A stretch of 64,000 nucleotides of DNA from positions 256,001-320,000 of the forward strand of contig CAWHHI010000006.1 in NCBI GenBank assembly GCA_963829055.1. Reading direction: 5' to 3'. How positions within the stretch are numbered: position 1 is the stretch's first letter; every line of letters starts with the position of its first letter. Made by a program: the position numbers and the translations under genes. Positions 11,228 through 64,000 of the stretch are shown here, one piece after another. The notes under the pieces were generated by a model, which did no database searches, was not told the DNA's origin, and worked only from the letters and a program-made list of their open reading frames with translations. This stretch comes from an uncultured Gemmatimonadaceae bacterium. GTDB lineage: Bacteria > Gemmatimonadota > Gemmatimonadetes > Gemmatimonadales > Gemmatimonadaceae.

Positions 11228-11239
11228 CCACGACCATCC

Positions 11240-12979: not shown

Positions 12980-12984
12980 CGCGA

Positions 12985-44333: not shown

Positions 44334-47016
44334 ATGAACCGCCGAGTTGTTAGCGGCGCCGCAGCCCGTGCGTTGGCGCTTTCGCTTCTAGTGTCTGCCG
44401 TTGCTTGTAAGTCCGATACCGATACGCCGTCGGAAGTCTTGACGCCGGCGGCCGTGCGACCCTCCGTGACGATGCCGGCGACTGCGCCTGCCGGCGCGCC
44501 TGCGCCCGTGTTGCCAAGTGTCGTTGTGGAAACGAGCACGGGCGAACCGGTGTCCGGCGTGACCGTCGTGTTCGCCGTCACCGCGGGAGGCGGCACGCTC
44601 ACCGGTGCCACGCCGCTCACGAACGCGTCGGGTGTGGCGACCGTCGGCGGCTGGACGTTAGGCACCGTGGCCGGGACGAATTCCCTGACGGCGACCGTTG
44701 CTGACATCCCGCCCGTCACATTTACCGCGACGGGCGTCGCTGGGCCGGCGGCGAAATTGGCCATCAGTGTACAGCCGGTCGGCGCCGGCACTGGTCAACC
44801 GCTCGCCACGCAACCCGCGGTGGTGGTACAGGACCAGTTCGGCAACACCCTAACGACGGATGCTGGACGCACCGTCACGGCCGCCATCGCCGCGGGCGGT
44901 GACGGAACGCTGAGTGGTACTCCGACCGCTAGCACCGCCGCAGGCATCGCGACCTTCTCGAACCTCACGATTGCCGGCGCGACGAATGCCACGCGTGCCC
45001 TCGTCTTCACGGCGGCCGGGCTCACCTCCGCGACATCCAGCGCCATTAGCCTGTCCCCGGTGTCGGCAGGGCCAACGATCACCGCGATCACGCCCGCGGT
45101 TCTCACGCCGGGCGCAACCGCGACGATTACCGGCACATCGTTTGGCTGCCACGCCAGAGGCAAACGCCGTGACGGTTGACGGCGTCTCGGCGATCGTGAC
45201 CGCTGCTTCCACGACGCAGCTCACTGTGACAGTTCCGGTGAGCGGACTCGCGTGCAAGCCTGTACGCGACATTGCCGTCGTGGTCGCAGCGGGCGGCGCC
45301 TCGGCAACCCGTCAGCACTCGCTTCGCACGGCCACGCCACGGGCGCTCGGCGTTGGGCAGTCGCTCATCCTCGCGAGCGCGGCTGACGTTCCGTGCAACG
45401 AGCTTCCGTCCGGCGGACAGTATGTGGTGAGCGTCTTCAACACGAGCACGAATGGAGCGGCCTCCACCGGCTTCCGTCTACAGGGTGGCCCTCAGGGTTT
45501 CGTCGCCGCGGATGTGGTCGAGCTCGCGCCGTCGCGCCGCCAGACCATCTCGCGTACGGATCTTCCGCACGGCCGCTTCTTCGAGCCATCGCGAGAGGAA
45601 TTCGATCGTCGAGTCGAGCACTTCGCGCATCTCGAGCGGAATCGCGCGGAATACCGGGAGCTCGCGGCACGCAAACGGGCATTCGAGTCGCGCGGGCGGG
45701 GAGCGGCCGTGCCTAACGACGCAGTCACACCATCCCGGAGCACCACGGCGTCGTCACTCCAGCCGTACGCGCCGATCCCCACGACGCTCGGTGCACAGTC
45801 CACCCTCCAGTTCCGGTATCTGGGGGCCGCCGAGACGCGCACCGTCACCACGGTGTACGTGGGGACCCGCGTCATCATCGTCGAAGATGTGGCGTCGCCA
45901 CTCGCGGGGACGCTGGCGACATTCTACCAGGAGATCGGAGCCGATTTCGATAGCCGGATGTACGACATCCTGCGGGCGAACTTTGGCGACCCGCTCGCCA
46001 GTGACGCTCGCCTCCATTCAACAGGGCGCGTCGTCCTCTTCTTCACTCCACGCGTGACCGAGCAATCGGTCGCTGGGTTCGTGAGCGCCTGCGACATGTT
46101 CACCACCGCAGAGTGCGCGGCGAGCAATGAGCAGGCGGTCGAGTATCTCTCGACCCCTCTCCCGAGCTGGACCCCGGCGAACGTGACGTTCTGGAAATCG
46201 TACATGCACGCCGTCATTCAGCACGAGAGCAAGCACGTCGTCTCACACGCGGAGCGAACCGCGCGGGGCGCGCCCAACTTCGAGGAATCGTGGCTCGAGG
46301 AAGGGTCGGCGGAAATTGCGCTCGAGATGTACTCACGCAACTTCTGCGGGTTCGGCGCCGGAGTCAGAGTGACGTACGCGCAGGTACAGAGCTGCATGAG
46401 TACGAAGCCGTGGACGCCCGATCTCGTCGAGGGCATCGGCTTCCAGCTCTACAACTTCTACCGATCTGTCGAATCACTGAGTCCGATCGTCGGCAACGTG
46501 GTCGTGAACGGCGTGCTCCAACCGTTCAACTACGAGAGCGCCTGGTCACTGGTGCGGTGGACCGCAGGTACCTATGGCGGATCGGACGCGGCATTCTTCA
46601 AGGGGTTGGTGCAGGAGACCGCGCTCACTGGAGTCCCCAACTTGCTCGCCCATTCGGGCCAGCCGCTTACCACGCTCCTCGGCGAATGGTCGCTGATGCT
46701 CGATGTCGACGATCGGCCGGGGTTCACGCCCGCGAGCTCGCACCTCACGTTCCCGAACATCAGGACGCGCGATTTCCTCGCCGGTGTTCGGACCGCGTAT
46801 CAACTGACGACTCCGGCGTTCCCGCTGCCTGTACGTTCCGCGCCCGCGGGCTCCAGCTTCAGCACCGACGTTCCCGGCATCGCCGCCGGTACGACGAGCA
46901 TCTTCGAGCTCGGCGGCGCGGGCGCGACGACGCAGATCATCGAGCTGCGCGACACCGGTGGCGGAGTTCTGCCCTCCGGCTCGCCGCTCCGCCTGAGCCT
47001 CGTGCGGCTGCAGTGA
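44334..47016 (+). CDS. lipoprotein with Ig-like (Big-1, IPT/TIG) domains and a zincin metallopeptidase domain (frameshift near 45145)
   Basis: AVAC lipobox; TNASGVATVGGWTLG; PGATATITGTSF; HESKH...WLEEGSAE. Confidence 0.8.
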
Positions 47017-47021
47017 GGCGC

Positions 47022-47570
47022 GTGCAGACATCTCGCGCGCTTGGGCGCCGGCGTGGGGTCGGTGGGGTCGTGGCGATCGCGCTACTCGTCGTCGTGGGGG
47101 CCTGCGCTCGTCGCGCGGCGCATGATCCGCCGGCGGCCGACGTCACGGGCTCCGTCACAGGCTCCGTGACGCTCCAGCGCACGGGCTGCTTTGGCCGTTG
47201 CCCCGAGTATTCGGTGCGTGTCGGCTCGGATGGCGGTGTTCGCTTCATTGGGCGAAGCAACGTCGCCGTACCTAACGAGTCGACGGCGAGCGTGCCGGCT
47301 GCTGACGCGCAGCGGCTCCTCGAGCAGTTCGCGGATGCCGGGTTTTTTACGCTCGACTCCACATATGTCGCGGGCAAGCCGACGTGCCGCTTTCACGCGA
47401 CCGACCTGCCGTCGGCCATGCTCGATGTCACGATAGGCGCGCGCTCGCATCGCGTGCTCTGGGACACGGGCTGCAGCGACGCGCCAGCGGCGCTCGGGCA
47501 GCTTGCCAATCGCGTCGATTCCGTCGCGGTAACGGCGCGCTGGATTGGCTCGACGCCGCGGTCGCCGTAG
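47022..47570 (+). CDS. DUF6438-like lipoprotein
   Basis: VGAC lipobox; LQRTGCFGRCPEYSVRV..DG.V.F.G; TDLP. Confidence 0.7.
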   Translation: MQTSRALGRRRGVGGVVAIALLVVVGACARRAAHDPPAADVTGSVTGSVTLQRTGCFGRCPEYSVRVGSDGGVRFIGRSNVAVPNESTASVPAADAQRLLEQFADAGFFTLDSTYVAGKPTCRFHATDLPSAMLDVTIGARSHRVLWDTGCSDAPAALGQLANRVDSVAVTARWIGSTPRSP

Positions 47571-47573
47571 GGT

Positions 47574-47729
47574 GTCATTCCGAGCGAGCGACAGCCGGGT
47601 GCCCACGCAGTGGGCGCATGAGGAATCGAGACTATACAAGGTAGAGGGCCCTCTATCGGGACGATCGCGATTCCTCGACTGCGGCCCTTCGGGCCTCCGC
47701 TCGGAATGACATAGTCCGCTCGGAATGAC
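47574..47729. repeat. family A repeat, copy 6 (extra right terminus)
   Basis: 3 nt after TAG; same termini and core. Confidence 0.9.
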
Positions 47730-47795
47730 AACCGGGGGCTCGCGATGGGGTGGCCCCGCGTTCATCTTGCGGGCCGCTCCGCCAACACGCCGCCG

Positions 47796-49023
47796 ATGAA
47801 CACGCCGCCCTCCGCTCCCGACACCACCGCTGATCCTCACGCCGCTGAACGCGCGCGACGATGGCGTCTCGTGCTCGGGTCGGATGCCCAGGCATCGACG
47901 GGCGTCTCGCTCACCGGGGCGGACGCGGGTATGGATCAGGCGCTGCAGGCGCTGTACGGCGGCGGTGGAGGTGACGCCAACGGCTCGCGCTCCAACGATC
48001 GTCGCGGCGGTCTCGGCAGCTCGGCGCCGTCCGTCGCGCGCTGGCTCGGCGACATTCGAGAGTATTTCCCGTCATCGGTCGTGCGCGTGATGCAGCGCGA
48101 TGCGCTCGAGCGACTCGACCTCAAGCGCATGCTGCTCGAGCCCGAGATGCTCGAGGCCGTCGAGCCCGACGTCCACCTCGTGTCGACGCTCATCGCCCTC
48201 AAGAGCGTCATCCCGAACAAGACGCGTGACACCGCGCGCCTCGTCGTGCGGCGGGTCGTCGAGCAGATCCAGCGACGGCTCGCCAACGCGACTCGTCAGG
48301 CCATCACCGGCGCGCTCAATCGCTCGGCGCGCACCACTCGTCCCAGGTACGCCGAGATAGACTGGCACCGGACCATCCGCGCGAACCTCAAGCACTACCA
48401 GCCGCAATACCGAACCATCATTCCGGAAACGCGAATCGGGTTCGGTCGCAAACGCAATTCGCTTCGCGACATCGTCCTCTGCGTCGATCAGAGCGGCTCG
48501 ATGGCCGCGTCCGTGGTCTACGCGAGCGTGTTCGCCGCGGTGCTCGCGTCGCTTCCGGCCGTGTCGACGCGGTTCGTCGTCTTCGATACGGCGGTCGTGG
48601 ACCTGACGGACGACATGGACGATCCGGTGGAGCTGCTGTTCGGTACGCAGCTGGGCGGAGGCACGGACATCAACCGCGCGCTGACGTACTGCGAGTCGGT
48701 CGTTAGGCGTCCCGTCCGAGACGGTGCTCGTGCTGATCAGCGATCTGTACGAGGGCGGTCATCGCGACGAGATGCTGAAGCGTGTCGCGTCGCTGGCGGC
48801 GTCCGGCGTGCGCATGGTGGCGCTGCTCGCGCTCAGCGATCAGGGCGCTCCGTCGTTCGACCACGGGAACGCCGCGGCCTTCGCCAGCCTTGGCGTCCCC
48901 GCGTTCGCGTGCACGCCCGATCTGTTCCCCGATCTCATGGCGGCCGCGATCAGCCGGCAGGATATGGGGCAGTGGGCCTCGAAGCAGGGCATCGCGGCTG
49001 GCGGTGGGGCCGCCACGCGGTGA
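47796..49023 (+). CDS. VWA (CoxE/YehP-like) protein (frameshift near 48715)
   Basis: RRWRLVLG; DQSGSM MIDAS; GGGTDI; ISDLYEG; ACTP. Confidence 0.85.
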
Positions 49024-50408
49024 AGTGGACGACGGAGAGCGTGCTGGCGCTCGCCCCCGACCCGGCGTCCGCGAAAGCGGGACGCGATCTCGCCACGCGC
49101 CGGAAGTGGGCGTCGTTAGGCTCCGGTCAGGGCGCGGACGACGCAGTGGTGCTGTGGGGCGCGTGTCAGGGCAGCGGCAAGGACCCGTACCTCACGCGCG
49201 TGGACACGGGCGAGCCGGCCTTCAAGTGCAGCTGCCCGAGCCGCAAGTTCCCGTGCAAGCACGCGTTAGGCCTGTTTCTGATCTTCGTCCAGGCGCCCAG
49301 CGAGCTCGCCGCCGGGAAACCGCCCGATTGGGTGACCGAGTGGGTCGAGAGCCGAGCGACGCGTGCGGCCAGGCGATCGGAGCGTGAAGCGCGAACGTCG
49401 GAGGTGACCGCAGCCGCCGATGACCCCAATGACGCCACACAGCGAGAGAAGGCAGCGAAGCAGACAGCCGCACGCGCGGCCGAGCGGGAGCGGCGCGTCG
49501 CGACCGGCGTGGCGGAGCTCGGGCTCTGGCTGCGCGACCTCGTTCGTCAGGGACTGAGCGCCGCCGCGGCGCGGCCCGCGTCGAGCTGGGAGACCATGGC
49601 CGCGCGCCTCGTGGACGCGCAGGCGCCAGGCGCGGCGAGACTCGTCAGGCAGATGGCGACGATACCGGCCAGCGGTGAAGGGTGGCCCGACCGACTGCTC
49701 GATCGAATGGCGCGGCTGCATCTCCTGCTCGAGGGCTACGGTCGCATTGACACGCTTCCGCCGGACCTCGCCGCCGACGTGCGCGCGGGGCTCGGATGGA
49801 CGACGACGCAGGAAGCGCTGCTCGAGCTCGACGGTGTGCGTGACCAGTGGGGCGTCGTCGGTCGCAGAGTGACGGAGGAAGACCGACTTCGCGTGCAGCG
49901 CACGTGGTTGTGGGGACGAGAGACCGGTCGCGCCGCGCTGCTCCTCCACTTCGCGCCCGTCGGAGCCACACGGACTGAGAGCAAACCCATCGACGCGACC
50001 TTCGTCCCCGGCACGGCGTTCGAGGGTACGCTCGTGTTCTTCCCGAGTGCGGCTCCGCTGCGCGCGATCGTGAAGGAGCGCGAGCGCGCGGTCACGTGGA
50101 CGACGGACCTCGGATATGCGAGCCTCTCCGACGCGGTCGCGGCCGCGTCGAACGCGGAGGCACGCATGCCCTGGACAGAGCAGCATCCGATGCTGCTGCG
50201 CGATGCGCTACCGGCAACCGCCACGTCGCCCTGGCGAGTGAGAGACGCGGACGGTCGCTGGCTTCGGGTCTCCGAGCGCTTTCGCGACCGGTGGCGTCTG
50301 CTCGCGGTGAGCGGAGGCGCGGCGGTCTCGCTGTTCGGCGAGTGGGACGGTGAGTCGCTCTTGCCGCTCACCGTGTGGGGAGACAGTGGTGCCATCGCGC
50401 TGCTGTAA
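49020..50408 (+). CDS. SWIM zinc-finger protein (YehQ-like)
   Basis: GTGA overlap; CQGSGKDPY; CSCPSRKFPCKH; RLVDAQAPG; FGEWDG. Confidence 0.85.
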   Translation: MKWTTESVLALAPDPASAKAGRDLATRRKWASLGSGQGADDAVVLWGACQGSGKDPYLTRVDTGEPAFKCSCPSRKFPCKHALGLFLIFVQAPSELAAGKPPDWVTEWVESRATRAARRSEREARTSEVTAAADDPNDATQREKAAKQTAARAAERERRVATGVAELGLWLRDLVRQGLSAAAARPASSWETMAARLVDAQAPGAARLVRQMATIPASGEGWPDRLLDRMARLHLLLEGYGRIDTLPPDLAADVRAGLGWTTTQEALLELDGVRDQWGVVGRRVTEEDRLRVQRTWLWGRETGRAALLLHFAPVGATRTESKPIDATFVPGTAFEGTLVFFPSAAPLRAIVKERERAVTWTTDLGYASLSDAVAAASNAEARMPWTEQHPMLLRDALPATATSPWRVRDADGRWLRVSERFRDRWRLLAVSGGAAVSLFGEWDGESLLPLTVWGDSGAIALL

Positions 50409-50429
50409 CCGACACGCCATGCGAGCCCG

Positions 50430-52026
50430 ATGACTCTCGCGCAACCGGACCTCGCCGTCTGGCCCACGGCGGTGAACGCCGCATTGCTCGGCATCGACCG
50501 CGCGGGGCTGACGCTTCCGTCAGGCGACGGATCGTTAGGCTCGGCCTGCACGCAACTTGCCGGTGTCGAGACTGACCCCTCGGCGGCGTTGTTGCGTGTG
50601 GCCGCCGCGGCGAGTGTGTATCGGCGCTGCGGGTGGATTCCCGTGCGCACCGACGAAGCACCGCCGGCGGCCTGTCCCCCCGACGCCCGCGTGATGTGCC
50701 CGCCGGCCGCGGCGGGGCTGCTGCGGCGCATCCTGCAAGGCGAGCACGCCTCGCTCGTTGGCGAATGGCTCACGCTGGCTGCACGCCACTCCATGAGAGT
50801 GCCGGCCGATACGCTCCCCGAGCTGCTCGACCGAGCCCTGCGCGACTCGCGGCTTCGGTCACCAGTCATCACCGTCGCTGGGACACGCGCAACCTGGCTG
50901 GCCGCGCACAACCCTGATTGGTCGTTCGCGATCGCTGGCGCGAGTGCCGACGCGTTGGCGGAGCTCTGGGAGCAGTCTGCGGACGGCCGAACGCGGCTCG
51001 CGGCGCTGCAGCAGCTCCGCGTTCTCGACCCCGAGCGTGCGCGCTCGGCACTGGAGAAGTCGTGGGCAGAGGAGAGTCCAGCCGAACGCGGCGCGTTCGT
51101 CGGCGCGCTCGTCCACGGGTTGAGCCCCGCGGACGAACCATTTCTCGAGCGCGCGCTCGATGATCGACGCAAGGAGGTACGGCAGAACGCGGCCGCCCTG
51201 CTCGCCCGACTGCCGGCGTCCGCGCTGGTGGCGCGCATGGCGGCGCGGGCCAAGGCGCTGGTCTCGTTAGGCCGATCGGGGCTGCTCAAGCGGCTGCGGG
51301 TCGACGTCACGCTGCCGGCAGCTGCCGACGACGCGCTCGTTCGCGACGGCGTCGAAGCCAAGCCGCCCGTCGGGATCGGCTGAGCGCGCGTGGTGGCTCG
51401 CGCAGATCCTCGCGGCGGTGCCGCCATCCACGTGGACCCTCGGCGGGTCGGTCGACGCCAAGGCCGTGCTGGGCGCTGTGGACGGCCACGAATGGCGTGA
51501 GCCGCTCGTCGCCGGCTGGCTCATCGCGACCGAGCGACACCGTGACGCGACGTGGGCGGAGGCGCTGTGGGCACATGACCGCGTCGCTCGCATCGACCCG
51601 AAGTGGGGCGCGCCGCAGCTGGAGCGCGTGTTCACGACCATCGTCCCCGCCGACCGCGTCGACGCCGAGCTCCGCAAATCGATCGGTGCGGGACGTGATG
51701 TACTTCGCGGAAATCACCCGGTGCTTTCCGCGATTCTCGGATGGCCTAACGAGTGGAGCGACCCGCTCGCGCGATCGGTCGCGTATCGTATCAAGGAGTA
51801 TGCGTCCGAGCGGGTGCCACTCACCAGCGAGTACGGCGTGCGCGCGCTGCTCGAGCGCAGCGGCCACGCTGTACCGATATCCGCGACCGGCGCGTTCATC
51901 GACGGTTGGCCCGAGCAGGATTCCGACGCATGGCGGACGTGGGCACCCGCCATCGACGCGCTCGCGTCAGTGCTCCGGTTTCGCAACGATCTTCACCTCG
52001 CGTTCAACGAGGCACCAGCAACATGA
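50430..52026 (+). CDS. DUF5691-like helical protein (frameshift near 51380)
   Basis: AALLG; WLAAHNPDW; DEPFLERALDDRRKEVR; WWLAQIL...PPS.W. Confidence 0.75.
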
Positions 52027-52033
52027 CCGCAAC

Positions 52034-53152
52034 ATGACCGCGTCCTCCGCGCCATCGGCGCCAGCATCGAATGGCCTCGCGATCCTGCGCGCCCATGCCG
52101 AACAACAGTTCGCCGATGAGCTGGACGCTCTCATCCGATCGGACACGCGCCCGCGCCCGCCGAGCTGGCGGATGTCACCCTGGGCGGTCGCGACGTATCT
52201 GCTCGGTGGTCGCACGGACGACGGCACCGAGATCACACCCAAGTACATCGGCAGTCGTCGCCTGATGGAGATCGCGATCGCCACACTCGCGACCGACCGC
52301 GCACTCCTGCTGCTCGGCGTACCTGGTACGGCCAAGACATGGGTGGCGGAGCATCTCGCGGCGGCGATCTCCGGTGACTCGACGCTGTTGGTGCAGGGGA
52401 CGGCCGGCACGAGCGAGGAGTCAGTGCGCTACGGATGGAACTACGCGCGTCTCCTCGCTGATGGTCCATCGCGCGCCGCGCTCGTGACGAGTCCGATCAT
52501 GCGCGCCATGGCGGAAGGACGCATCGCGCGCGTCGAGGAGCTCACGCGCATTCCGGCGGACGTGCAGGACGCACTCATCACGATTCTCTCGGAGAAGTCG
52601 CTGCCCATCCCCGAGCTCGGGCAGGAGGTGCAGGCGGTGAAGGGCTTCAACCTCATCGCGACGGCGAACGACCGCGACAAGGGAGTGAACGAGCTGTCGA
52701 GCGCGCTCAAACGCCGCTTCAACGTCGTCGTGCTTCCCGTTCCGGCGACGATCGACGAGGAAGTGGACATCGTCACGCGTCGCGTAGACGCACTCGGCCG
52801 CGCGCTGGAGCTTCCGGCCGAAGCTCCCGCGGCGGAGGAGATTCGGCGGGTGGTCACGATCTTCCGCGAGCTGCGCGGCGGCGTGACGGAGGATGGCAAG
52901 ACGAAGGTGAAGTCGCCGAGTGGGACGCTGAGCACCGCGGAGGCGATCTCGGTGCTGAACGGCGGCCTCGCACTCGCCGCGCATTTCGGTGACGGCCAAC
53001 TGCGGTCGGGCGACCTCGCCGCGGGCTTGTTAGGCGCCGTGGTGAAGGATCCGGTGCAGGACCGGATCGTGTGGCTCGAGTACCTGGAAGCGGTGGTGAA
53101 GGAGCGTGACGGGTGGAAGGACCTCTACCGCGCCTGTCGCGCAGTGAGCTAG
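52034..53152 (+). CDS. MoxR-family AAA+ ATPase (YehL-like)
   Basis: GVPGTAKT Walker A, RVEELTR, TANDRDKGVNELSSALKRRFN. Confidence 0.9.
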   Translation: MTASSAPSAPASNGLAILRAHAEQQFADELDALIRSDTRPRPPSWRMSPWAVATYLLGGRTDDGTEITPKYIGSRRLMEIAIATLATDRALLLLGVPGTAKTWVAEHLAAAISGDSTLLVQGTAGTSEESVRYGWNYARLLADGPSRAALVTSPIMRAMAEGRIARVEELTRIPADVQDALITILSEKSLPIPELGQEVQAVKGFNLIATANDRDKGVNELSSALKRRFNVVVLPVPATIDEEVDIVTRRVDALGRALELPAEAPAAEEIRRVVTIFRELRGGVTEDGKTKVKSPSGTLSTAEAISVLNGGLALAAHFGDGQLRSGDLAAGLLGAVVKDPVQDRIVWLEYLEAVVKERDGWKDLYRACRAVS

Positions 53153-53189
53153 TGGGCATTCGGCGCGGACGGCGGCATCGCTGGTCGGG

Positions 53190-53306
53190 GATAGCAGGCG
53201 ATTCCGGCCTCATTGCCAGAATTGGCAAATGTGCGTCGCATCTCGCCCGTCACAGTGAGCCTCCGGTTCGCCAATTCTGGCAATACGGCCTGCATCGCCT
53301 GCTATC
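53190..53306. repeat. long imperfect inverted repeat carrying two family B sites
   Basis: GATAGCAGGCGAT..GGCC..ATTGCCAGAATTGGC pairs with GCCAATTCTGGCAAT..GGCC..ATCGCCTGCTATC. Confidence 0.8.
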
Positions 53307-53339
53307 GCGCACTTCGAACACGTAGCCGCTCGTGGCACA

Positions 53340-55587
53340 GTGAGCAAGGCGATGGGTGCGGTGCACCTCTTCGGCATCCGCCACCATGGGCCGGGATCGG
53401 CGCGGAGTCTCGAGCACGCGCTCGCCCGCCTCGCGCCCGATATCGTGCTCATCGAGGGGCCGCCGGAAGCGGACGCGCTCATCCCGCTCGCCGCGGATGC
53501 CGCGATGCGCGCGCCCGTGGCGCTGCTCGTCTATCGCCCGGACGCGCCCAGGCGGGCCGTGTACTACCCGTTCGCCGAGTTCTCGCCCGAGTGGCGGGCA
53601 ATGCGATACGCGATCGGACGAGGAATACCAGCTCGCTTCATCGACCTCCCACAGGCGTATCAGCTGATCGATGAGGCGCTGCCTGACGCGGCGCCGAGCC
53701 GACGCGCCCGTCGCGCCGCGGGTGGTCGCGGACGACCCGTTAGGGTGGCTCGCAGCGGCAGCCGGCTATGACGATGGCGAGCGATTCTGGGAGCACCTCG
53801 TCGAGCATCGCCGGAAAGACGACGAGGCCATCTTCGACGCCGTGGCGTCGGTGATGACCGAGCTTCGCGCCGAGTCGGACGCCCGAAGCCGATGCGTCGC
53901 CAGTGAGGACCGAGCGCGAGAGCGCACATGCGGCGCGGGCCATTCGCAGGCGGCGCGCTGCGCGAAGGCTTTCAGCGCATCGCGGTGGTCTGCGGCGCCT
54001 GGCACGTTCCGGCGTTAGGTACCATGCCACCCGCCGCGCACGACGCGGCCATTCTCAAGGGGCTGCCGAAAGCGAAGGTCGAAGCCACGTGGGTGCCGTG
54101 GACGAACGGTCGCCTGTGCGTCGCCAGCGGCTACGGTGCCGGTATCGAGTCGCCCGGGTGGTATCATCACCTGTGGTCCGCGCCTGATCGCGTGACCGAA
54201 CGCTGGCTCGCGCGCGTGGCGGCGCTGCTGCGCGACGAGGATCTCGATGCGTCGTCCGCTCAGATCATCGACACGGCGCGGCTCGCGGATTCGCTGGCCG
54301 CGTTGCGCGGTCGCTCGCTGGCTGGTCTGTCCGAGCTGATGGAGGCGACGCGCGCCGTTCTCTGTAGCGGCGTCGACGCGCCGCTCGCGCTGATCGGCCG
54401 CAAGCTCGTGGTCGGCGAGACACTGGGTCAGGTCCCGGAAACGGCGCCAATGGTTCCGCTGCACCAGGATCTCATCCGTGAGCAGCGTCGCCTTCGCCTT
54501 CCACCGGAAGCCGTCGAGCGAACGCTCGATCTCGACTTGCGGAAGGACACGGACCTCGCGCGCAGTCAGCTGCTGCATCGCCTAACGCTGCTCGGAGTAC
54601 CGTGGGGACGCGGACAGCGAGCGGCAGGGCAGCGCGGGACGTTCCACGAGCTCTGGCTCGTGCAGTGGCAGCCGGAGCTGTCCGTGTCGCTGATCGAGGC
54701 GGCGGTGTGGGGCAACACCGTCGCCTCGGCGGCGACTGCGCGAGCGTCGGACCTGGCCGACAAGGCCGCCGAGCTGCCTGCGCTCACTGCGTTGCTCGAG
54801 CAGGTCGTGCTCGCCAACGTCGGTGATGTCGTGGGGCGGATCATGGCCCGCCTCCAGGAGGAATCGGCGCGAGCGCCGGACATCGCGCACCTCATGGACG
54901 GTCTGCCGGCGCTCGCCAACGTGCTGCGCTACAGTGACGTCAGGCGAACGGATCTCGGCGTCATCGGCGACGTCGTCGATGGATTCGTGGTGCGGATCTG
55001 TGTCGGCCTGGGTGTCGCCTGCAGTTCACTCGACGATGATGCCGCGGCGGCGATGCGCAGGCGGATCGAGGCGGTACACGGCGCGGTCGCGCTGCTCGCG
55101 CGCGAGGAACACACGGCTGCGTGGCACGCCGCAACAGCAAGGCTCGCGGACTCGGAGCAAGTGCACGGCACCGTCGCTGGACGATGCGCGCGTCTGCTCT
55201 TCGATGCCGGAGCGCTGGGCCCGGCCGACGCCGCCCAGCGTCTTTCGCGAACGCTGTCCGCGGCCGAAGATCCCGCGCGTGCAGCGGCGTGGGTGGAAGG
55301 ATTTCTCGCAGGGAGCGGGCAGTTGCTGTTGCACGACGATGCGCTCTGGCAACTCATCGACGGGTGGCTCGTCGCGTCTTCGCGAGGAGACGTTCGTCGC
55401 TCTGCTCCCGCTGCTGCGCCGGGCCTTCTCGGCCTTTGCTGCGCCTGAGCGACGACAGCTTGGCGACCGTGCTCGCCGGCCGAGCACCACGGATGGCCTA
55501 ACGTCTGGGGATAGCGGCGAGTTCGATCACGTCAGAGCGGAGGCGGGACTCCGTACGGTTCTGACGTTGCTGGGTGTGGACGGGTAG
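53340..55587 (+). CDS. DUF5682 / YehM-like protein (several frameshifts)
   Basis: GIRHHGPGSA, IEGP, PFAEFSPEW, VCGAWH, SGYGAG..SP, TFHELW, WVEGFL. Confidence 0.85.
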
Positions 55588-55700
55588 CCGCGACTTGCCG
55601 GTCCAGCGGCCGGTCGCCAGCTTCTCGAAGCGCGGCGATCCTTGCGCCTCGCGACCGCCTCGGTAGCTTCGCGGTCACCCCACCTCGCGCGGAGCCCCGG

Positions 55701-56129
55701 ATGCTGAAGAAGCTGGCGGCACTCTATGCCCTCACGTCCACAGCCTGCGCGTCATGGCAGACGCAAGGCGGACCACCCGCCCGCGCGATAGAGCAGAGTG
55801 CCTCCAAGGGCGAAGAGATGATCCGCGTCGAGGTCAACTCCGGCAAACGCTGGGAGATCTACGCCGCGACGCTCGTCGGCGACAGCATCATTGGCCGCAA
55901 CACGCCCAAGGCCATTCCGGAGGCCGAGCGGGTTGCCGTCGCGGTGTCGGACGTAAAAAGCATCTCCCGCCACAAATTCAGCGCCGGTCGCACTATCCTC
56001 GCCACCCTGGCGATCACGGTCGCCGTCGTTGCCCTGGTCGGCGCCACCGGATCCTCGTCATCGTCATCATCCTCGAGCTCGTCCTGCGCGTCAGCCAGCG
56101 TGTCGCCGAGCGCGCCGACCGGGGCGTAA
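55701..56129 (+). CDS. lipoprotein with C-terminal TM, poly-Ser tract and second Cys
   Basis: STAC lipobox-like at residue 16; ILATLAITVAVVALVG, eleven Ser, CASA. Confidence 0.7.
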   Translation: MLKKLAALYALTSTACASWQTQGGPPARAIEQSASKGEEMIRVEVNSGKRWEIYAATLVGDSIIGRNTPKAIPEAERVAVAVSDVKSISRHKFSAGRTILATLAITVAVVALVGATGSSSSSSSSSSSCASASVSPSAPTGA

Positions 56130-56144
56130 CCGCCGCGCCGTCGA

Positions 56145-56465
56145 TCAGCCGGCGAACTGCCTCACGAGCGCGATCGCTCCGGCGACGAACGTGACACCGA
56201 GGTAGCCGACCACGAGAGCAGGGCGCTTGAGCACACACCGGCTCTCGCGCAGCCCGCCGCGAATCGCGCGCACGTAGGCCCACAGGCCGAGTGCGCTCAT
56301 GAGCATCACGCACGCCGGCGGTCCGAGGACCCACGCGATGAGCGCGACAGTCGTCATCGCGCAGAATCGCACCGGGTCGAAGCCCGTCGTGCGACCGGGA
56401 GTCGCCGCTGGCGGCCTAACGCCGGCGGCGGCGCGTACGCTGGGGGTCGGGGTTGGCTGCGGCAT
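56145..56465 (-). CDS. small three-TM membrane protein (in frame with the radical SAM as assembled)
   Basis: ATG at 56465 within a TGATG junction; FDPVRFC...AY...SRCVLK...YL. Confidence 0.65.
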   Translation of the reverse strand: MPQPTPTPSVRAAAGVRPPAATPGRTTGFDPVRFCAMTTVALIAWVLGPPACVMLMSALGLWAYVRAIRGGLRESRCVLKRPALVVGYLGVTFVAGAIALVRQFAG

Positions 56466-58044
56466 CAGTCGGCACCGATTGGCTGCGGCGGCCCGTGCGG
56501 CGCGCGCCGCCCGCGCGACCAGCTCCGACGGCTTCATCTGGGAGAGGGGTGACCATGCCTGCACGGCGCAGAAGGGAACGCACTGGTGCGCGTCGCCGTC
56601 CTGCGTCCCGACGTGGACGCAGCACTGCACCAGACGCTCCTCGATCATGGTGTTGATGTCCATGAAGGGCTTGATGGTGATGCGCTTGATGCGCTCCGAG
56701 ACCAGCTTGCGGAAGCCGCTCCGGTCGCCGAGCATCGCCTGGCCAGCGAGCCGCACCAGCGTGCTGAGGCCGAGGTCGCACGTCTCGCACACGTCCCGAA
56801 AGATCTGCGCGAGCGATGGATGCGTGAGCGAGCTCCGCTCACTGAACAGCCCGAGCAGCGCCTCCTTCACCAACCCGCGAAGCTGCTTCGTGATCTGCGC
56901 GTCGGCGATGCGGTTGGCAACGAGGTCGAGGTGCTGCTTCAGCGTGTCTTCCCCCACGAGGCTGAGGAGCGAGCGCCACTCACCGGCGTCGGTGCGGAGC
57001 AGGTAGCCGATGCTACAGCAGTGTGGATGCGAGCAGGGGAGTGCCGTGAGGTCGCGCCAGGTGACGAGCCCGTTCGTCTGTGGGCCGAGTCGCGCGAGGA
57101 CGCCACCATGCGTTAGGCGGTCCGTGGGGTCGAGCGTGAGTGATCGCCCCGACGTGAACTGCGGCTGGATCGACACGCCACCGACGAAGGGCGTCTCGAG
57201 CATGTACTGGATCACGTCGCCGATCTCGTCGTCGTTGACGCCGAGGGACGCCGTCATCGTCAGCGTCGTGAACACGCCGGCTGCGCTCAGGCGCTCGATC
57301 GCCTCGCGTTTGACGCGGCGCAGGTCGGCGCCGCGGTGGGCGCGGTGCGTCTCCAGGCGGAAGCCGTCGAACTGGAAGTACATCTCGATGCGCGTGTTGT
57401 GGCGTTCGAAGAACGAGACGAGTTGATCGTTGCGCGCGATCTGGATGCCGTTGGTGTTGATGACGAGCCGCTGGATGTCGCGCTCGATCAGCGCCTCGAG
57501 GAGCGGAATGAGGTCGGGGTGGATCGTCGGCTCGCCGCCGCTGATCATCAGCACGTCGAGTCGGCCGTTCTCTCGCTCCAGGCGCGCGTCGACGTTCGCG
57601 AGCACCTGCTCCACCGGAACGAACCCGTGCAGGCTCGGCGACGAGTCGGCGAAGCAGGTCGGGCAGGTGAGGTTGCAGGCCGCGGTCACGTCCTCGAGCA
57701 GGATGCAGGTGTGCTGCGTCTGCATCTCGCCCAGCCCCCGCGCGTAGACCAGCGGGACGGGGTCGAAGTTGCCCGGCGTGTCGGGGATGTGGACCTTCGT
57801 CGGCGCCGTCCACTGCTCCAGCCAGCGCAGGATCTCGGGCTGCTCGTCGTACAGCGTCGTGATGCGACCGTGGTCGGGGCAGCCGCGCACGAGCCACGCC
57901 TTCCCGTCGCGCTCCGCGATGTAGCCGGACAGACGTCGCACGTTCGGCGAGGTTCTGCTCTGGCGACTCGCGGTGGCATTCGGGGCAGAACGCGGTGACG
58001 TAGCGCATGACGCGTTCGTCGCGCAGTGGCATTCCGACCGGCAT
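56465..58044 (-). CDS. radical SAM enzyme, Tes/GDGT-MAS (MJ0619)-like architecture (frameshift near 57940)
   Basis: CPEC...CPDHG; CNLTCPTC; SGGEPT; TNG; YFQFDG; PCSHPHC; QCCVH...VPFC. Confidence 0.82.
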
Positions 58045-58068
58045 GATGTCTCTGGGCCTCGGGTGGCG

Positions 58069-58879
58069 TTAGGCGGGTACGGCGCCGGCAAGCGTCTCGC
58101 GCTCACCGCGCCGGCGTCGGATGAAGTACGCGACGAGCGCGACCACACCCGGAAGCACGGTGAGTTGCGATCCACTCAGGCCCAGAGCCATCTCCGGACT
58201 ACCGCGGGTGAACTCGACGAAAAAGCGGAAGACGGCGTAGGCGAGCAGGAAGGCCTTGAAGACGTCGCCCTCCGACATCCACGGCGCTGGCAGCGCGCGT
58301 CGATTCGCGACGCGGAAGAGCACCCAGGCGGCGATTCCAAGGAACGCGGCCTCGTACAGGAAGGAGGGGTGCATCGCGAGGCCGCTCGTGCATGCGGCGC
58401 AGTTGCCGATCCGCGCCGCGGCGTCGGGCGGGACCCGCACGCCCCAGGGCAGCGTCGTTACCGTCCCTGGGCGCTCGGCCAGAAAGCAGCCGATGCGTCC
58501 GATTGCCATGCCGAGCGCGGTACCTGGAATGAGCAAATCGCCCGTCTGGCGGCGGTAGCCGATGAGTCGTTTCGTGACCACGACTCCCGCATACGCGCCG
58601 GCGAGTCCGGCAAGCAGACTCTTACCTCCATACGCGAGGAACCCGGGGAGCGAGGGGTCGCGTGCGTCCAGCAAATACCGGAAGACGAGACCATAACGCG
58701 CGAGGATCGCGGCGCCTACCAGCCCTCCCGCTATCACGAGAAGGAAATCCTGATCGGCGCGTCCGGCGCGCCTCGCGATCCGCCACGAAGTCACGAGCGC
58801 GACCGCGATCCCGAGCGCGACGAACACCGCGTGGGAGTAGATGACGTAACGCGCCCACGTGCAGGAGGACCGGTCGCAT
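58069..58879 (-). CDS. Lgt-family (prolipoprotein diacylglyceryl transferase-like) paralogue (frameshift near 58850)
   Basis: MRPVLLHVG.YVIYSH; GRIGCFL; LPWG; HPSFLYE; YAVFRFFVEFTR. Confidence 0.85.
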
Positions 58880-59186
58880 GCGCTGAGCGGCGGGAAGAGG
58901 AAACAGCTGAGGCGAATATGCAGCGAGCCCCTCACAGCGCAAGCACCGGCGTTCGGCGAGGCCTAACGTCGCCAGGCTACGAACCCGAGCGCGCCATTGA
59001 GCCACCGTCGGCTTGCGGAGCTCGGATACAGAAATAGATTGCGTTTTGTACAGATACGAGGCGGGGCCACATGGCGCGAAAGAAAGCGAGTTCAGCGCGC
59101 GGGTCGAAACCGGCTCGCCACGGCAAGTCACAGACAGCGTCCTATCCGACACCGGGGGAATCGAGCTTCGTGAAAGAAGGCTCCCT

Positions 59187-59411
59187 TTGGCCGTAAAGCG
59201 TACGCGAAAAAACATGGACATGGACCAGGCCAAGCTGGACGTGGCCAGACGCTTCTTTGGCGCACGGACGGAGACCGAAGCCGTGAATACGGCGCTGGAC
59301 CTTGCCGCATTTCAGAGTGAGGTCGAAGCCGGAATCGATAAGATGGTGAAGGCGGGCGGTGTATCGAGCGCCGTCGACGCGACCTGCCGCCTTCCTTCAT
59401 CAATGACGTGA
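59187..59411 (+). CDS. VapB-like antitoxin
   Basis: RKNMDMDQAKLDVARRFFGARTETEAVNTAL. Confidence 0.6.
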   Translation: MAVKRTRKNMDMDQAKLDVARRFFGARTETEAVNTALDLAAFQSEVEAGIDKMVKAGGVSSAVDATCRLPSSMT

Positions 59412-59525
59412 TGATCGCTGTCTCATGCTGCGAGAACGGCATCACACTCATTACAAACAACGCAAAGGATTTCACGACGATCACCCGTCATCGAAGTCCT
59501 TCGCGTTCGAAGCGCCGTGGCCAAG
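59390..59525 (+). pseudogene. C-terminal remnant of a PIN toxin
   Basis: SFINDVMIAVSCCENGITLITNNAKDF matches the PIN C-terminal D..IA......L.T.N.KDF pattern; the N-terminal part is absent. Confidence 0.6.
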
Positions 59526-59607
59526 CAGTCCCCGGCGCAAGACCCGACCAAGGTAGAGGTGCAGCGGCCGCCCGATCCCAGGGTACTCGCCCTCGACAAT
59601 CGTTAGG

Positions 59608-60300
59608 TCACGCGGTCGGAAATCCGAGCGCGCCGTTGAGCCACCGCACGAGCGGCAGCAACCCCTGGAACTCCTTCGCGAGCAGCGCCGGGAGCTTCGC
59701 GTCCGTGACCTGCGCGTCGGTGACCGGGCGGCCGCTCACGAACGACTGATAGCGAAGCCACTTCGCCGCCGGATGGTCCTCGGCGAACCCGCGCGGCATG
59801 CGCTTGAGCACTGCCTCATCGTCGAGCCCACCGTACTTCTTCGTGAGCCCGCGCGCTATGCGGTCGAAGCCAACCGGGTCATGGGCGATCGCGTCGCGCA
59901 GCCGGTTGAGTTGCGGCCGAGGAGGCATCCAGAGCCCACCGCCGACGAACGACTTCCCGGGCTCGAGGTGAAAGTAGAAGCCGGCGCTTCCGGCGTCCGC
60001 TTCGCTGCCAACGCGCGACGTCGCACGGCGGTGGTGGAACCAGCACGCCGCGTGGGTCTTGTACGGCGACTTGTCGCTCGAGAAGCGAATGTCGCGATTG
60101 ATGCGGAACATCGACCGCTTCGGGTCGCCGCCGATCTCGGGCGCGAATTTCGTGAACCGCGCGTTCATCTCGCCAATGAGATCGCGCATTGGCTCGCGCA
60201 CCTCGCCCTCGTAGTCGGCGCGGTGCGCCTCGAACCATTCCTTGTTGTTGTTCTTTGCGAGGCCGCGGAAGAACCGCAGCGCGGCCGGTGTGAATGGCAT
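59608..60300 (-). CDS. DUF2461 / TIGR02453-family protein
   Basis: LAKNNNKEWF; FRINRDIRFSSDKSPYK; LKRMPRGF..DHP. Confidence 0.9.
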   Translation of the reverse strand: MPFTPAALRFFRGLAKNNNKEWFEAHRADYEGEVREPMRDLIGEMNARFTKFAPEIGGDPKRSMFRINRDIRFSSDKSPYKTHAACWFHHRRATSRVGSEADAGSAGFYFHLEPGKSFVGGGLWMPPRPQLNRLRDAIAHDPVGFDRIARGLTKKYGGLDDEAVLKRMPRGFAEDHPAAKWLRYQSFVSGRPVTDAQVTDAKLPALLAKEFQGLLPLVRWLNGALGFPTA

Positions 60301-60563
60301 CGTCCCCTCTTCGGCTGGTGCGGTGATGCAGTATCCATGACTCTGCCATTACAGTAATCGCCTCACGCGCCGCCGCGAGGCGTCGGCAGCCGGCTCGCTC
60401 GTCTGCGCGTGTCGCGCTCGAGAAGCGTTGAGGGGTCATGAGACGGAATCGTCCCTGGCTGCGTTGAATCTGAGGAGCAGTGGACGGCGCACAGCGCCTG
60501 CCAGGCCCAGCGCTGCGGTTCGGTTGGCAGGCGCAGCGCTTCGTACAGCGCAGGAGGAGTCCA

Positions 60564-61109
60564 ATGTCGCGTATGGGTCTCTACACACCGGTCGTGCTCG
60601 GATTGGCGGTGTCGGTCGCCGCCCCTCGCATCCTCGTCGCCCAACGTACCGCCTCAGCGCGGCAAGGAGGGGCGGCAGCAACCGGGCCACTGACCGATGT
60701 CTCTGTGACGTTAGGCGGGCAGACCGTCACGGGGCGCGTCGACGCCAACTGCCACGTGGATGAGCGCGCGACGCCAAGCAACACGCGTGCGTACTTCGTG
60801 GCGATGTACCCGTGGTTCGGTCAACGCGTCGCGGCGGACAAGCCGCAGTGGCGCTTTGATCTGGAGATCCGCCGTGGTGCCACGTCGGAAGCGTCGGATC
60901 AGTTCGTGTTCTCGTTCCTCGACGGCCAGAAATCGGGAACGATTCAAACGGTGTCAGGTTCCCAGCGGATGGGGAGCGGCACCGTCCGGGTCACCCGCCA
61001 CGGCAACGGCGCCCGGTTCGACGTCGATGGGCGAACCAAGGAAGGCGACCCGGTCCGCGCGACGATCGACTGCTCGGCGTTCCAGAAGAGCGAGGGCGCG
61101 GGCGGATAA
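60564..61109 (+). CDS. secreted hypothetical protein
   Basis: AGGAGG RBS, signal peptide, two Cys. Confidence 0.65.
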   Translation: MSRMGLYTPVVLGLAVSVAAPRILVAQRTASARQGGAAATGPLTDVSVTLGGQTVTGRVDANCHVDERATPSNTRAYFVAMYPWFGQRVAADKPQWRFDLEIRRGATSEASDQFVFSFLDGQKSGTIQTVSGSQRMGSGTVRVTRHGNGARFDVDGRTKEGDPVRATIDCSAFQKSEGAGG

Positions 61110-61133
61110 GGCGCCAGGCTTCTCATTGCCCGC

Positions 61134-63813
61134 CTACCGCATCGCCGTGATGGGATCGACGCGTGTCGCTCGCCGCACCGGAACCATGAGCGCCACCGTC
61201 GCCGCAACGAGCAGCATCAGCACCGCCAGGCCGAGTGCGAGCGGATCGAACTGCGCGACGCCGTAGAGCATCCCGCGCACCAGCCGCGAGACCACCACGA
61301 CGCCACCCGCCCCGACGACCAGTCCGAGCACCATCCACGCGCCGCCCTGCCGCAGGACGAGCCGAGCGATGGCGCCGCGGCTCGAGCCTAACGCCATGCG
61401 CACGCCGAACTCCCGCTCGCGCGCCGCCGCCATGGCCGCGAACATCGCATACACACCCACTGACGCGAGCAGTAGCGCCAGCGCCACCGAACGCGGTCAT
61501 GAGCACGACAGGGAGACGCCGTCCCGCGAGCCCGTCCGAGATCAGCGAGCGAAGCGTCGCCGGATTGTTGAGCGGCAACCGCGGGTCGATCGACGCCAGC
61601 GTCTGCTGCACCGGCTTCACCAGCGCCATCGGGTCACCGCGGGTGCGGATCACGAAGATCGGGCCGTTCCACGGATTGACGCGGTTCGACATGTACATCG
61701 TGATCTCCGGATCCGGCCGCGCGGGGTCATTGCGCTCGTTGCCGACGACGCCGACCACGGTGAACACCGGCGTCTCCGGGCTCGCGTCGAGACGGACACG
61801 TCCGCCCACCGCGCCGCCGTTAGGCCACAGGCGCCGCGCCAGTGACTCGTTGATGATGAGCGTGGGCGGCCCGTCGGCGAGGTCCTGCGGGCCGAAGGTC
61901 CGGCCTTCCTTGAGTGGGATCCCCAGCGTACGGAAATAGTCATCGGACACCGTCGTGTACAACGCGAGCGGGACAGCATCGCTCGGTGGTGGCGGCGCAC
62001 CTTCGACGAAAATCGAGTTGTGATTGCCCACCCGTGTCGGGACCTCACCGGTACTCGCCACGGAGATGACGCCGGGGAGTGCTCGCACGCGCTCCTCGAA
62101 CTGCGACACGAATTCCGAACGCGACGCGTTCGTCGTGTACGTGCCCGGCGGGAGCTGCACCGCGACCGTCAGCACGTCGTCGGGGTTGAAGCCTAACGGG
62201 GTAGCAGTCATGGCCCAGAGGCTGCGAGCCAGGAGACCCGCACCGGCGAGCAGGCTGAGACAGAGCGCGATCTGCCCCGCCACGAGGATCCCGCGCAGGC
62301 GCCGTGAGCGCGTGCTCTCGCTCGTGCCGCGTCCCTCATCGCGGAGCGTGTCCTGCGGGTCGGCGCGGCTCACCGCCAGCGCCGGGGTGACGCCGAAGGC
62401 GAGCCCGGTGCCGAGTGCCACGAGCGCCGTGACGAGCAGCGCGCCTCCGTCGAGCGACAGCTCGGCGTAGGGCGGCAGCGCGCGCAGCGCGAGCCCGCGC
62501 AGCACCTTGAGGCCGAGCACCGCCAGGAGGATGCCGGCGGCTCCGCCGGCGAGCGCGAGCACCACGCTCTCCGTGAGCAGCTGCCTGACGACTCTCCCGC
62601 GATTCGCGCCTAACGCGACACGCACCGCGAACTCGCGCCGGCGAGTGAGCCCGCGTGACAGGAGCGCTCCCGCGAGGTTCGCGCAGGTGATCAGGAGCAC
62701 GAGTCCCGCGCTCGCCAGCAGCACGAGCAGGGCTTTCCGGGTGTCGCCGACCATCGACTCCCGGATCGGCATCGCGACAATGCGTGCGCTCCCGTTGAAC
62801 TGCGGGTACTCGCGCGCCAGGTCCTTGCCGATGCGTGACAGGTCCTCCCGCGCCGCCTCCACGGTGATGCCCGGCTTCAACCGGCCGACGAACCCGTAGT
62901 TCTGCTGCCGACGCAGTCGCACCGGGTCACGCATCGCCCCGTGGAAGTCGAGCGCGAAGTAGAAGTCGATCTCGCCCGGCATGGGCGCGACGAACCCGCG
63001 CGGCAGGACGCCGATGATCGTGCGGGTGATCCCGTTCACGCGCACCGCGCGCCCGATGATGCCGGGGTCGCCGCCGAACAGCCGCTGCCACGTGGCGTAC
63101 GTGGCGATGATGTTGTACGCCGTATCGGCCGCGGCGTCTTCAGCGCGAAACACGCGACCGCGGGCGGCCGGTACGCCGAGGGTCGGGAACAGTGCGGGCT
63201 CGACCCACGCGACCCGCGCGACGATCGGGTTGCCATCGCCGTTGTACACCGCCTCACGCGGCCGGCCCTCGAACGCCGCCACCTGCGTGAACGATCGCTG
63301 ACGCGCGGCAATGTCCATGATCGTGCCGGCGCTCACGGGACCGCGGTCGTTCGAGCCGTCGATCCGGCGGCTGTACCCGCGCATGACGCGGTCGGCGTCG
63401 GCGTACGGCAGCGCATCGAGGAGCACCGACTTCACGACGCCGAACACCGCGGCGTTGGCGCCGATGCCTAACGCCAACGTGAGGACGGCGAGCAGCGTGA
63501 ACAGCGGCGCGCGGAGCAGGGAGCGGACGCCGAACCTGAGATCCTGTCGGAGATCGTCGAACCATTCGGCGCGCCGCTCGAGCGCCGCGCGTTCCCGGTC
63601 TTCCGCACTCATGGCCATGCTCCAGTGGTTGGTGTCCCCGAACCGCCGATGCGCTTCCGCGCGCGCCGCCTCCGGCGTCGAGCCGCGCGCCACCAACTCG
63701 GCGACCCGCATCTCCAGATGAAACGCGACCTCCTCGTCCACGTCCGCCTCGATCCGCGGGCGCCTGAGGGCGAGGCGGAACGCGCGTCGCGTGCCGTTAG
63801 GCAGCTCTGCCAT
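61134..63813 (-). CDS. ADOP-family duplicated MacB/FtsX permease (frameshift near 61480)
   Basis: EEVAFHLEM; QDLRFGVR; LALGIGANAAVF; LLITCANLA; REFAVRVALGA; VDPITAMR. Confidence 0.9.
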
Positions 63814-63833
63814 TGTTCTTGCTGCGTCCCACG

Positions 63834-64000
63834 TCAGGCGGTGCGGAGCGCGGCGAAGATGGCCTCCGCGTAGCGCGTCCAGGTGGCGGTCCGGGCTATG
63901 AGCTGCCGGCGCCCGGCGGGCGTCAGCGTGTAGTACTTGGCCCGCCGATTGGCATCGGACACGCCCCACTCACTCGCCGCCCAGCCGTTCTTCTCGAGGC
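63834..64000 (-). CDS. PadR-family regulator (5' end outside window)
   Basis: RLEKNGWAASEWGVSDANRRAKYYTLTPAGRRQL, directly upstream of the ADOP permease. Confidence 0.88.
   Translation of the reverse strand, partial: LEKNGWAASEWGVSDANRRAKYYTLTPAGRRQLIARTATWTRYAEAIFAALRTA

Follow-up and report, generated by a model that had tools for sequence, protein, structure and literature searches.

What would a transferase of the Lgt family, an enzyme of the radical S-adenosylmethionine (SAM) type resembling archaeal tetraether synthase (Tes, or GDGT-MAS) and a small membrane protein do together? Lgt enzymes move diacylglycerol from phosphatidylglycerol onto a cysteine thiol, and genes for these three kinds of protein stand side by side on the minus strand at positions 56145-58879 of the window, as we call the whole 64,000-nucleotide stretch analysed here (uncultured Gemmatimonadaceae bacterium, assembly GCA_963829055.1, contig CAWHHI010000006.1, positions 256,001-320,000). 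They form a conserved module that is an uncharacterised combination of two known enzyme kinds. Our preferred interpretation is that this three-gene membrane module may be a private protein-lipidation and tail-remodelling system, a tentative proposal to which we give somewhat less than an even chance.

A preliminary description of the locus, made from its letters alone, had named three linked genes at these coordinates, and all three are present; it had not reported that the assembled frames are broken three times, each time by a single extra base (at 58851, 57946 and 56485/6). With these bases discounted, the Lgt-like gene (58069-58879) has its ATG at 58879, its stop at 58069 and 269 codons, and is separated by 24 bases from the radical SAM gene (56465-58044, ATG at 58044, 525 codons), whose TGA overlaps the ATG of the third gene by one base (TGATG, 56467-56463). 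This third gene (56145-56465), which ends at 56145, encodes a membrane protein of 106 amino acids with two cysteines, Cys35 (codon 56361-56363) and Cys77 (codon 56235-56237), called the two-Cys miniprotein below. The cysteine motifs quoted in the preliminary description were all found in the translated frames: CPEC, CPDHG, CNLTCPTC, PCSHPHCC and CCVH...VPFC in the radical SAM enzyme, and FDPVRFC and ESRC (quoted as SRC) in the membrane protein. A scan of positions 55600-59700 returned no promoter-like and no terminator-like sites, the same as in shuffled sequences, and is uninformative in a genome of 67% G+C.

The linkage of the genes is far beyond chance. A survey with one genome per species yielded 80 loci from five phyla, and an Lgt-like open reading frame (ORF) was adjacent to the radical SAM gene on the same strand in 79 of them, the sole miss (L068) beginning at a contig end. 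Seventy-four loci belong to Actinomycetota (among them Mycobacterium, Mycolicibacterium, Nocardia, Microbacterium, Nonomuraea, Janibacter and Acidimicrobiia), and the remaining ones come from Gemmatimonadaceae (one), Thermoanaerobaculia (two), other Acidobacteriota (one), Oscillochloridaceae (one) and Rhodothermales (one). Seventy-one loci have lgt first and the radical SAM gene second, and eight have the order radical SAM gene, miniprotein gene, lgt, so the gene set has been kept together through rearrangement. In 59 of the 80 loci the gene of the two-Cys miniprotein follows closely after that of the radical SAM enzyme, its conserved motif beginning within 180 bases past the radical SAM frame in 54 of these and 252-990 bases past it in the other five. 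These counts bear out the triad that the preliminary description had singled out, and no further ORF family was common to the surroundings of eight diverse loci.

In two more distantly related proteins, P0200 (671 amino acids) and P0207 (733 amino acids), an LGT, a Zn_ribbon_HMPTM and a Radical_SAM domain are naturally fused in a single chain, with 34-35% identity to the window enzyme. In a FastTree phylogeny of 84 sequences the latter groups with its closest relative (P0001), with the Gemmatimonadaceae locus of the survey (L006) and with two proteins that their sources name Gemmatimonadaceae and Gemmatimonadetes (support 97). The module is sparse across genomes: at a profile threshold of E <= 1e-100 it was found in four of 200 other sampled genomes of Actinomycetota, the phylum of the M. 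senegalense locus, and in none of 150 other sampled genomes of the window's own phylum. As a separate observation, an Acidobacteriota metagenome-assembled genome (L009, 2562-7005) has the radical SAM gene twice in tandem, with a two-Cys miniprotein after each copy; the first copy and its miniprotein share a single open frame, which may be a true fusion or a long-read indel.

The radical SAM enzyme is, as judged from its sequence and from the predicted structure of its closest relative, a full-length relative of GDGT-MAS/Tes with the four-domain fold of GDGT-MAS. Pfam assigned Radical_SAM and Zn_ribbon_HMPTM to it. The relative, P0001, has 525 amino acids, is 93% identical to the window enzyme, starts with MPVGMPLRDERVMRYVTAFCPEC and ends with LIGAD; it matched M. 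jannaschii GDGT-MAS (MJ0619; structure 7TOL) over both halves (phmmer E 5e-37), the next PDB sequence match being MoaA at about 4e-04. An AlphaFold2 model of P0001 based on a 45-sequence alignment (predicted local distance difference test, pLDDT, 84.4; predicted template modelling score, pTM, 0.87) gave 7TOM and 7TOL as the top Foldseek matches (E 1e-31 to 7e-31, template modelling (TM) score 0.70-0.76, 537-548 columns, 23% identity), whereas the remaining matches cover the radical SAM core only (best E 3e-09, TM 0.33).

The claim of a Tes/GDGT-MAS-like enzyme thus stands as regards full-length relationship but not as regards membership in Tes. Against the Tes model NF045702, which has a cut-off of 450 bits and was passed in three of 14 control genomes, the window body scored 148.6 bits, or about one third of the cut-off, P0001 scored 155 and the best match in a scan of the whole genome scored 144. 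The best-scoring NCBIfam model for the window enzyme was that of TrsS (NF045646), matched near its whole length (197.2 bits, profile positions 12-429 of 441; 195.3 bits for P0001) but far under its cut-off of 490 bits; a published table row names TrsS as a selenoprotein family, with no functional description found, whereas the window gene has no in-frame TGA. Neither cut-off was reached by any of the 68 longest among 150 nearest representatives of 50% clusters. By the NCBIfam scores and the PDB alignment, on which this placement rests, the enzyme falls outside Tes as NCBIfam defines it.

The metal sites show the same mixture of likeness and difference. The residues C20, C23, C55 and H58 of a rubredoxin-like site (CPEC at 57976-57987, its second half CPDH at 57870-57881) and C123, C127 and C130 of the radical SAM cluster motif CX3CX2C (CNLTCPTC, 57654-57677) are invariant among 45 sequences, and the pattern C-X2-C...C-X2-H matches C9X2C12X20C33X2H36, which binds the rubredoxin-like iron of GDGT-MAS in the passages available from PMC9433317. 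The C-terminal CC.H...PFC is shared as well. Further ligands described there, C73, C77 and C80, which together with a histidine hold the N-terminal auxiliary cluster ([4Fe-4S]N), correspond to L, Q and G in one pairwise HMMER alignment to 7TOL (chain index = residue + 20), and the family's 45 aligned sequences have no cysteine in the stretch bounded by H58 and C113. In the same HMMER alignment Cys438-Met439 of GDGT-MAS is replaced by I-K and Tyr459 by V, Met439 and Tyr459 being fully conserved among 1000 archaeal homologues according to a figure legend in PMC9433317. The family has invariant cysteines of its own (C113, C337, C342, C474, C475, C488 and C492) and two near-invariant ones (C419 and C422), and its set of auxiliary clusters probably differs from that of GDGT-MAS, the predicted complement of metal centres being a rubredoxin-like iron, the radical SAM cluster and one or more C-terminal clusters, without an N-terminal one. 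Three of four metal sites in the Tes-like cysteine layout of the preliminary description are therefore retained and the [4Fe-4S]N site is not.

The transferase matched nearly the whole Pfam LGT profile (102.9 bits against a gathering threshold of 24.9; profile positions 9-239 of 240) but stayed under the cut-off of the housekeeping equivalog TIGR00544 (64.4 and 118.9 bits, respectively). The only PDB match of its AlphaFold2 model (pLDDT 89.7) at E <= 0.001 was E. coli Lgt (5AZB; E 4.9e-06, TM 0.58-0.63). It is a paralogue, as the preliminary description had supposed: the genome has three Pfam LGT matches, the other two being on different contigs and scoring higher (162.9 and 149.2 bits), and another Lgt was found elsewhere in the genome in all five other module-bearing genomes tested. 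The two higher-scoring Lgts (L001:1435-2286 and L002:1423-2304, contigs C4 and C20) are themselves atypical (Y26F, H103W, N146C, E151D and Y235A), and the gene of one of them adjoins a tsaD-like gene, as judged by eye from its translation.

We compared these proteins at the 13 positions of a published Lgt motif (Y26, H103, G104, G142, R143, G145, N146, E151, G154, Y235, R239, E243 and R246; 10.1101/2025.03.27.645668, in the part available) in an alignment that joins the window protein and the genome's two other Lgts with 76 Lgt-like proteins of related loci and with E. coli Lgt (5AZB/5AZC; PF01790). G142, R143, E151, G154, Y235, R239, E243 and R246 are kept in all 76 family members and G145 in 75, while Y26 is replaced by H and N146 by C in all 76, and H103 by L in 71, a pattern that includes the window protein. 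The window protein shares with E. coli Lgt the fold and the catalytic arginines and glutamates and keeps nine of the 13 positions, differing at Y26H, H103L, G104A and N146C. N146C alone is not diagnostic, because the two other Lgts of the genome carry it too; the preprint also reports it for distant true Lgts. According to the same source, H103 helps to set protein-substrate specificity, and Y26H and N146C together occur in MSMEG_5408, the second Lgt homologue of M. smegmatis, which in these residues resembles the family of the window protein. By its aligned residues, the Lgt-like paralogue appears to keep those tied to head-group binding and gating and to alter those tied to the choice of protein substrate.

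The two-Cys miniprotein is hydrophobic and has no Pfam family, and its nearest clusters in the ESM Atlas are unnamed ('hypothetical protein'). In an alignment of 61 sequences D30, P31, C35, T39, Y64, G71, C77, V85 and Y88 are invariant, so that both cysteines of the membrane protein to which the preliminary description had drawn attention are strictly conserved. The positive-inside rule and the lengths of the hydrophobic stretches place the N-terminus and Cys35 at the outer face, with Cys35 at the first helix's outer end, and put Cys77 in an arginine-rich cytoplasmic loop; in this predicted topology Cys77 would be within reach of a cytoplasmic enzyme.

A second type of small protein occurs in many actinobacterial loci. 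The gap between lgt and the radical SAM gene exceeds 150 bases in 47 of the 71 loci in which lgt comes first; by inspection, and not by a rigorous count, most of these gaps contain a further small membrane ORF whose end is a Cys-bearing helix. Loci without the two-Cys miniprotein mostly carry an ORF of this kind. In the mycobacterial loci the second type is present and the two-Cys type absent: in L035, L040, L046, L048, L056, L058, L060, L061, L070 and L072-L075 (Mycobacteriaceae and allied), the two-Cys miniprotein is missing and a proline-rich membrane protein ending in GLGLMIGWALTS..G.CTG.NP lies between lgt and the radical SAM gene. In L071 the small membrane ORF of the second type sits downstream. 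The window, with its gap of 24 bases, carries the two-Cys type only, and the L006 version of the second type had no match in the genome to which the window belongs (best E 0.13).

On our preferred interpretation the Lgt-like transferase would lipidate the small membrane protein that the module itself encodes, adding a diacylglycerol-type lipid at an invariant cysteine, after which the Tes-like radical SAM enzyme would create a C-C (or C-S) bond at the tails of that lipid. We infer the lipid donor, the role of the small protein as acceptor and the chemistry of the radical step. GDGT-MAS, as described in the available passages of PMC9433317 and PMC13459092, accommodates a lipid tail in a hydrophobic tunnel and abstracts hydrogen from the tail's terminal carbon; before it forms the C-C bond, the radical is kept in store through a carbon-sulfur bond with the enzyme's C-terminal cluster. 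It binds lipids, even E. coli phospholipids, and it couples tail carbons (PMC9433317). In a more specific version, which we regard as rather unlikely, the tails of the lipid fixed by the Lgt-like enzyme would be welded to one another, to an opposite-leaflet lipid or to the miniprotein's second cysteine. Soil bacteria, fast-growing mycobacteria among them, would then have a macrocyclic or membrane-spanning lipid bound to a protein. The preliminary description had related the locus to the question of which bacteria make membrane-spanning lipids. With the module in four of 200 and none of 150 sampled genomes this bearing is weak: the module is rare and therefore at best a side road for that question, and it is unlikely to be a bulk source of such lipids.

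Several points weigh against a lipidated miniprotein remodelled by its neighbour. The residues DPLRLC preceding and including Cys35 differ from the classical lipobox, and in the predicted topology the chain would cross the membrane in the sense opposite to that of a signal peptide. The two-Cys protein is absent from 21 of the 80 loci, three of which are cut by contig ends, and L044 has neither this protein nor an obvious substitute. The enzyme is without the [4Fe-4S]N ligands, the Cys438-Met439 pair and the Tyr459 of GDGT-MAS, and its chemistry may therefore differ from tail coupling. Finally, the short-read contigs that lack the extra bases stem from related populations (sharing at best 0.63 of sampled words) and not demonstrably from the source sample, so real frameshifts may exist in this strain.

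The main rival is a pathway that acts on free lipids, in which the radical SAM enzyme couples or cyclises the acyl tails of phospholipids to give a diabolic-acid-like membrane-spanning or macrocyclic lipid, the Lgt-like protein moves diacylglycerol to another acceptor or swaps head groups, and the miniprotein is an anchor, scaffold or regulator of a soluble enzyme. We consider it a serious but doubtful explanation. GDGT-MAS itself works on free lipids, and E. coli phospholipids are among those that it binds (PMC9433317, in part), and the overlap of stop and start codons in the window and the close spacing in the loci fit a stoichiometric partner as well as a substrate. Another radical SAM enzyme, the bacterial membrane-spanning lipid synthase Mss of Thermotoga and Thermoanaerobacter, joins two lipid tails (PMC13159169 and PMC13459092). 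It is known from anaerobes only, and its discoverers did not find Tes homologues in the Mss-bearing producers (Sahonero-Canavesi et al., 2022; PMC13159169). According to PMC13159169, mss is missing from aerobic Acidobacteria with iso-diabolic acid, most of which have no close homologue of Tes either; an unknown route to iso-diabolic acid therefore exists. The free-lipid pathway has to contend, on the other hand, with the full arginine and glutamate set of the Lgt-family enzyme, which would suggest a thiol acceptor, and with the two invariant cysteines, which in a mere anchor need another explanation. The module is also sparse (4/200 other Actinomycetota genomes, 0/150 genomes of its own phylum) and lies mostly in Actinomycetota, which are not known for membrane-spanning lipids.

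The three frame breaks within 2.7 kb raise the alternative that the module is, in this genome, a decaying pseudogene cluster with real frameshifts. At 58851 the start of the Lgt-like protein (MRPVLLHVG) and its body are in different frames; at 57946 the first 33 residues of the radical SAM enzyme, which carry CPEC, are in a different frame from the body; and at 56485/6 its natural end (QPIGAD-stop, similar to that of P0001) is in a different frame, so that the body continues through the membrane protein in an ORF of 676 amino acids (56145-58175). We compared the window with Logan short-read contigs of four public runs from four studies (soil and rhizosphere; X1, X2, X3 and X5), which represent related populations, the best sharing 0.63 of sampled words, and of which none is demonstrably from the source sample, a circumstance that leaves some room for the pseudogene. 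The extra base at 58851 is left out in the covering contig of all four runs, at full depth in each. The base at 57946 is likewise left out in all four, the depth behind the one-base gap being 7.83 of 7.83 in X1, 8.02 of 8.02 in X2, 8.16 of 8.16 in X3 and 4.99 of 7.09 in X5. At 56485/6 one base is left out in two of the three runs with cover, in all the depth of X1 (3.2 and 5.4 of 8.6) and of X2 (4.45 of 4.45), while X3, at a depth of two, gives no gap call, and X5 does not cover the site.

Once the three single bases are set aside, every coding frame is open throughout, with 93% identity to an intact relative, and discounting two of the bases gives the radical SAM gene exactly 525 codons, the length of P0001. 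Neighbouring genes unrelated to the module are split alike, which points to assembly as the cause: DUF5691 is divided between two ORFs covering profile positions 2-295 and 289-488, DUF5682 is spread over at least two ORFs, and the last domain of an FtsX permease is in another frame. Across positions 46000-64000 there are 38 indel places relative to the short-read contigs, with gaps in ten of the 32 contig pieces listed. Since contigs of related populations are without the extra bases, the three breaks are probably assembly errors; the module genes would then be intact in the organism, and the fusion of enzyme and miniprotein would be an artefact. We consider a decaying cluster improbable.

In another rival reading the target of the radical SAM enzyme would be the small protein, in which it would form, for example, a thioether or other cross-link at Cys77 or Cys35 as sactipeptide-type enzymes do; the Lgt-like enzyme would add an ordinary lipid anchor and the tails would be left untouched. 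Such a peptide-directed activity would fit the invariance of both cysteines, of which Cys77, in a loop predicted to be cytoplasmic, would be reachable by the enzyme, and the many extra invariant cysteines of the radical SAM family; the mechanism of GDGT-MAS, too, passes through a C-S bond (PMC9433317, in part). The fold speaks against it, being over its whole length, including the helical region of the second lipid pocket, that of GDGT-MAS (TM 0.70-0.76) and not that of peptide-modifying enzymes (TM 0.33-0.35 or less), and Pfam reported no SPASM family and no family for recognition of RiPPs (peptides made on the ribosome and modified after translation) in the radical SAM protein. We therefore hold this explanation to be decidedly improbable. 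The last alternative, in which the enzyme would be a bacterial tetraether synthase orthologue with GDGT-like or branched tetraether lipids as its products, has in its favour the superfamily and overall fold common to the window enzyme and GDGT-MAS and draws on the proposal of bacterial Tes homologues as enzymes of glycerol dialkyl glycerol tetraethers with branched chains (brGDGTs) in PMC8941075 (in the part available), but it is highly improbable given 148.6-155 bits against a cut-off of 450 that is passed in three of 14 control genomes, no passing sequence at the Tes or TrsS cut-off among the 68 nearest cluster representatives tested, the missing N-cluster cysteines, Met439 and Tyr459, and the lack of ether-lipid genes among the neighbours.

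We found no published description of a module made up of Lgt-like, Tes-like and miniprotein genes. A search of literature full text, which did not extend to supplementary figures, returned no paper on Lgt or diacylglyceryl transferase paired with radical SAM, tetraether synthase or GDGT-MAS. Zeng et al. (2022) proposed 456 bacterial Tes homologues for brGDGTs in the portion available of PMC8941075, the text of which contains neither 'Gemmatimonad' nor 'diacylglyceryl'; 'diacylglyceryl' is also absent from an August 2026 review on lipid-modifying radical SAM enzymes (PMC13459092), 'radical' is absent from the text of the Lgt preprint (10.1101/2025.03.27.645668), and PMC8939145 mentions diacylglyceryl transferase for ordinary lipoproteins only. 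In the parts available, a preprint on labelling of mycobacterial lipoproteins describes MSMEG_5408 as a possibly redundant Lgt, and preprints treat the second mycobacterial homologue merely as a possibly redundant or weakly active Lgt. A search for MSMEG_5406-5410 in papers turned up MSMEG_5406 alone; this gene, two genes from MSMEG_5408 and a possible member of the module, encodes a hypothetical protein that was about nine-fold lower under zinc starvation with N,N,N',N'-tetrakis(2-pyridylmethyl)ethylenediamine (TPEN) according to the relevant passage of PMC7174638.

The wider neighbourhood in the window comprises VWA_CoxE, DUF5691, AAA_5, DUF5682, DUF2461, a PadR-linked FtsX permease and a weak VapB-like match, and none of these genes is conserved with the module in the eight diverse loci. 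A four-gene set on the plus strand (47715-55587) encodes VWA_CoxE, DUF5691, an AAA_5 (MoxR-like) ATPase and DUF5682, and about 20 gapped bases relative to the short-read contigs are clustered at 53887-53935. On the minus strand at 61123-63998 a PadR-like end fragment comes before a large FtsX-type permease, whose last FtsX domain (61134-61487) is off-frame from the permease body, another probable indel. Convergent to the module, a plus-strand ORF of 142 amino acids (55701-56129) has a signal-peptide-like start ending in Cys (LTSTAC), a hydrophobic helix at its C-terminus and ten serines in a row; Pfam assigned it to no family, and it is not kept beside the module elsewhere. Further away, genes for the flavoprotein, the iron-sulfur subunit and subunit D of fumarate reductase or succinate dehydrogenase lie on the plus strand at 11228-14516.

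If the proposed protein-lipidation and tail-remodelling system exists, it would represent a new post-translational lipid modification in bacteria, would extend C-C coupling of the Tes type beyond archaeal ether lipids, and would explain what the second Lgt homologue of mycobacteria, so far a puzzle, is for.

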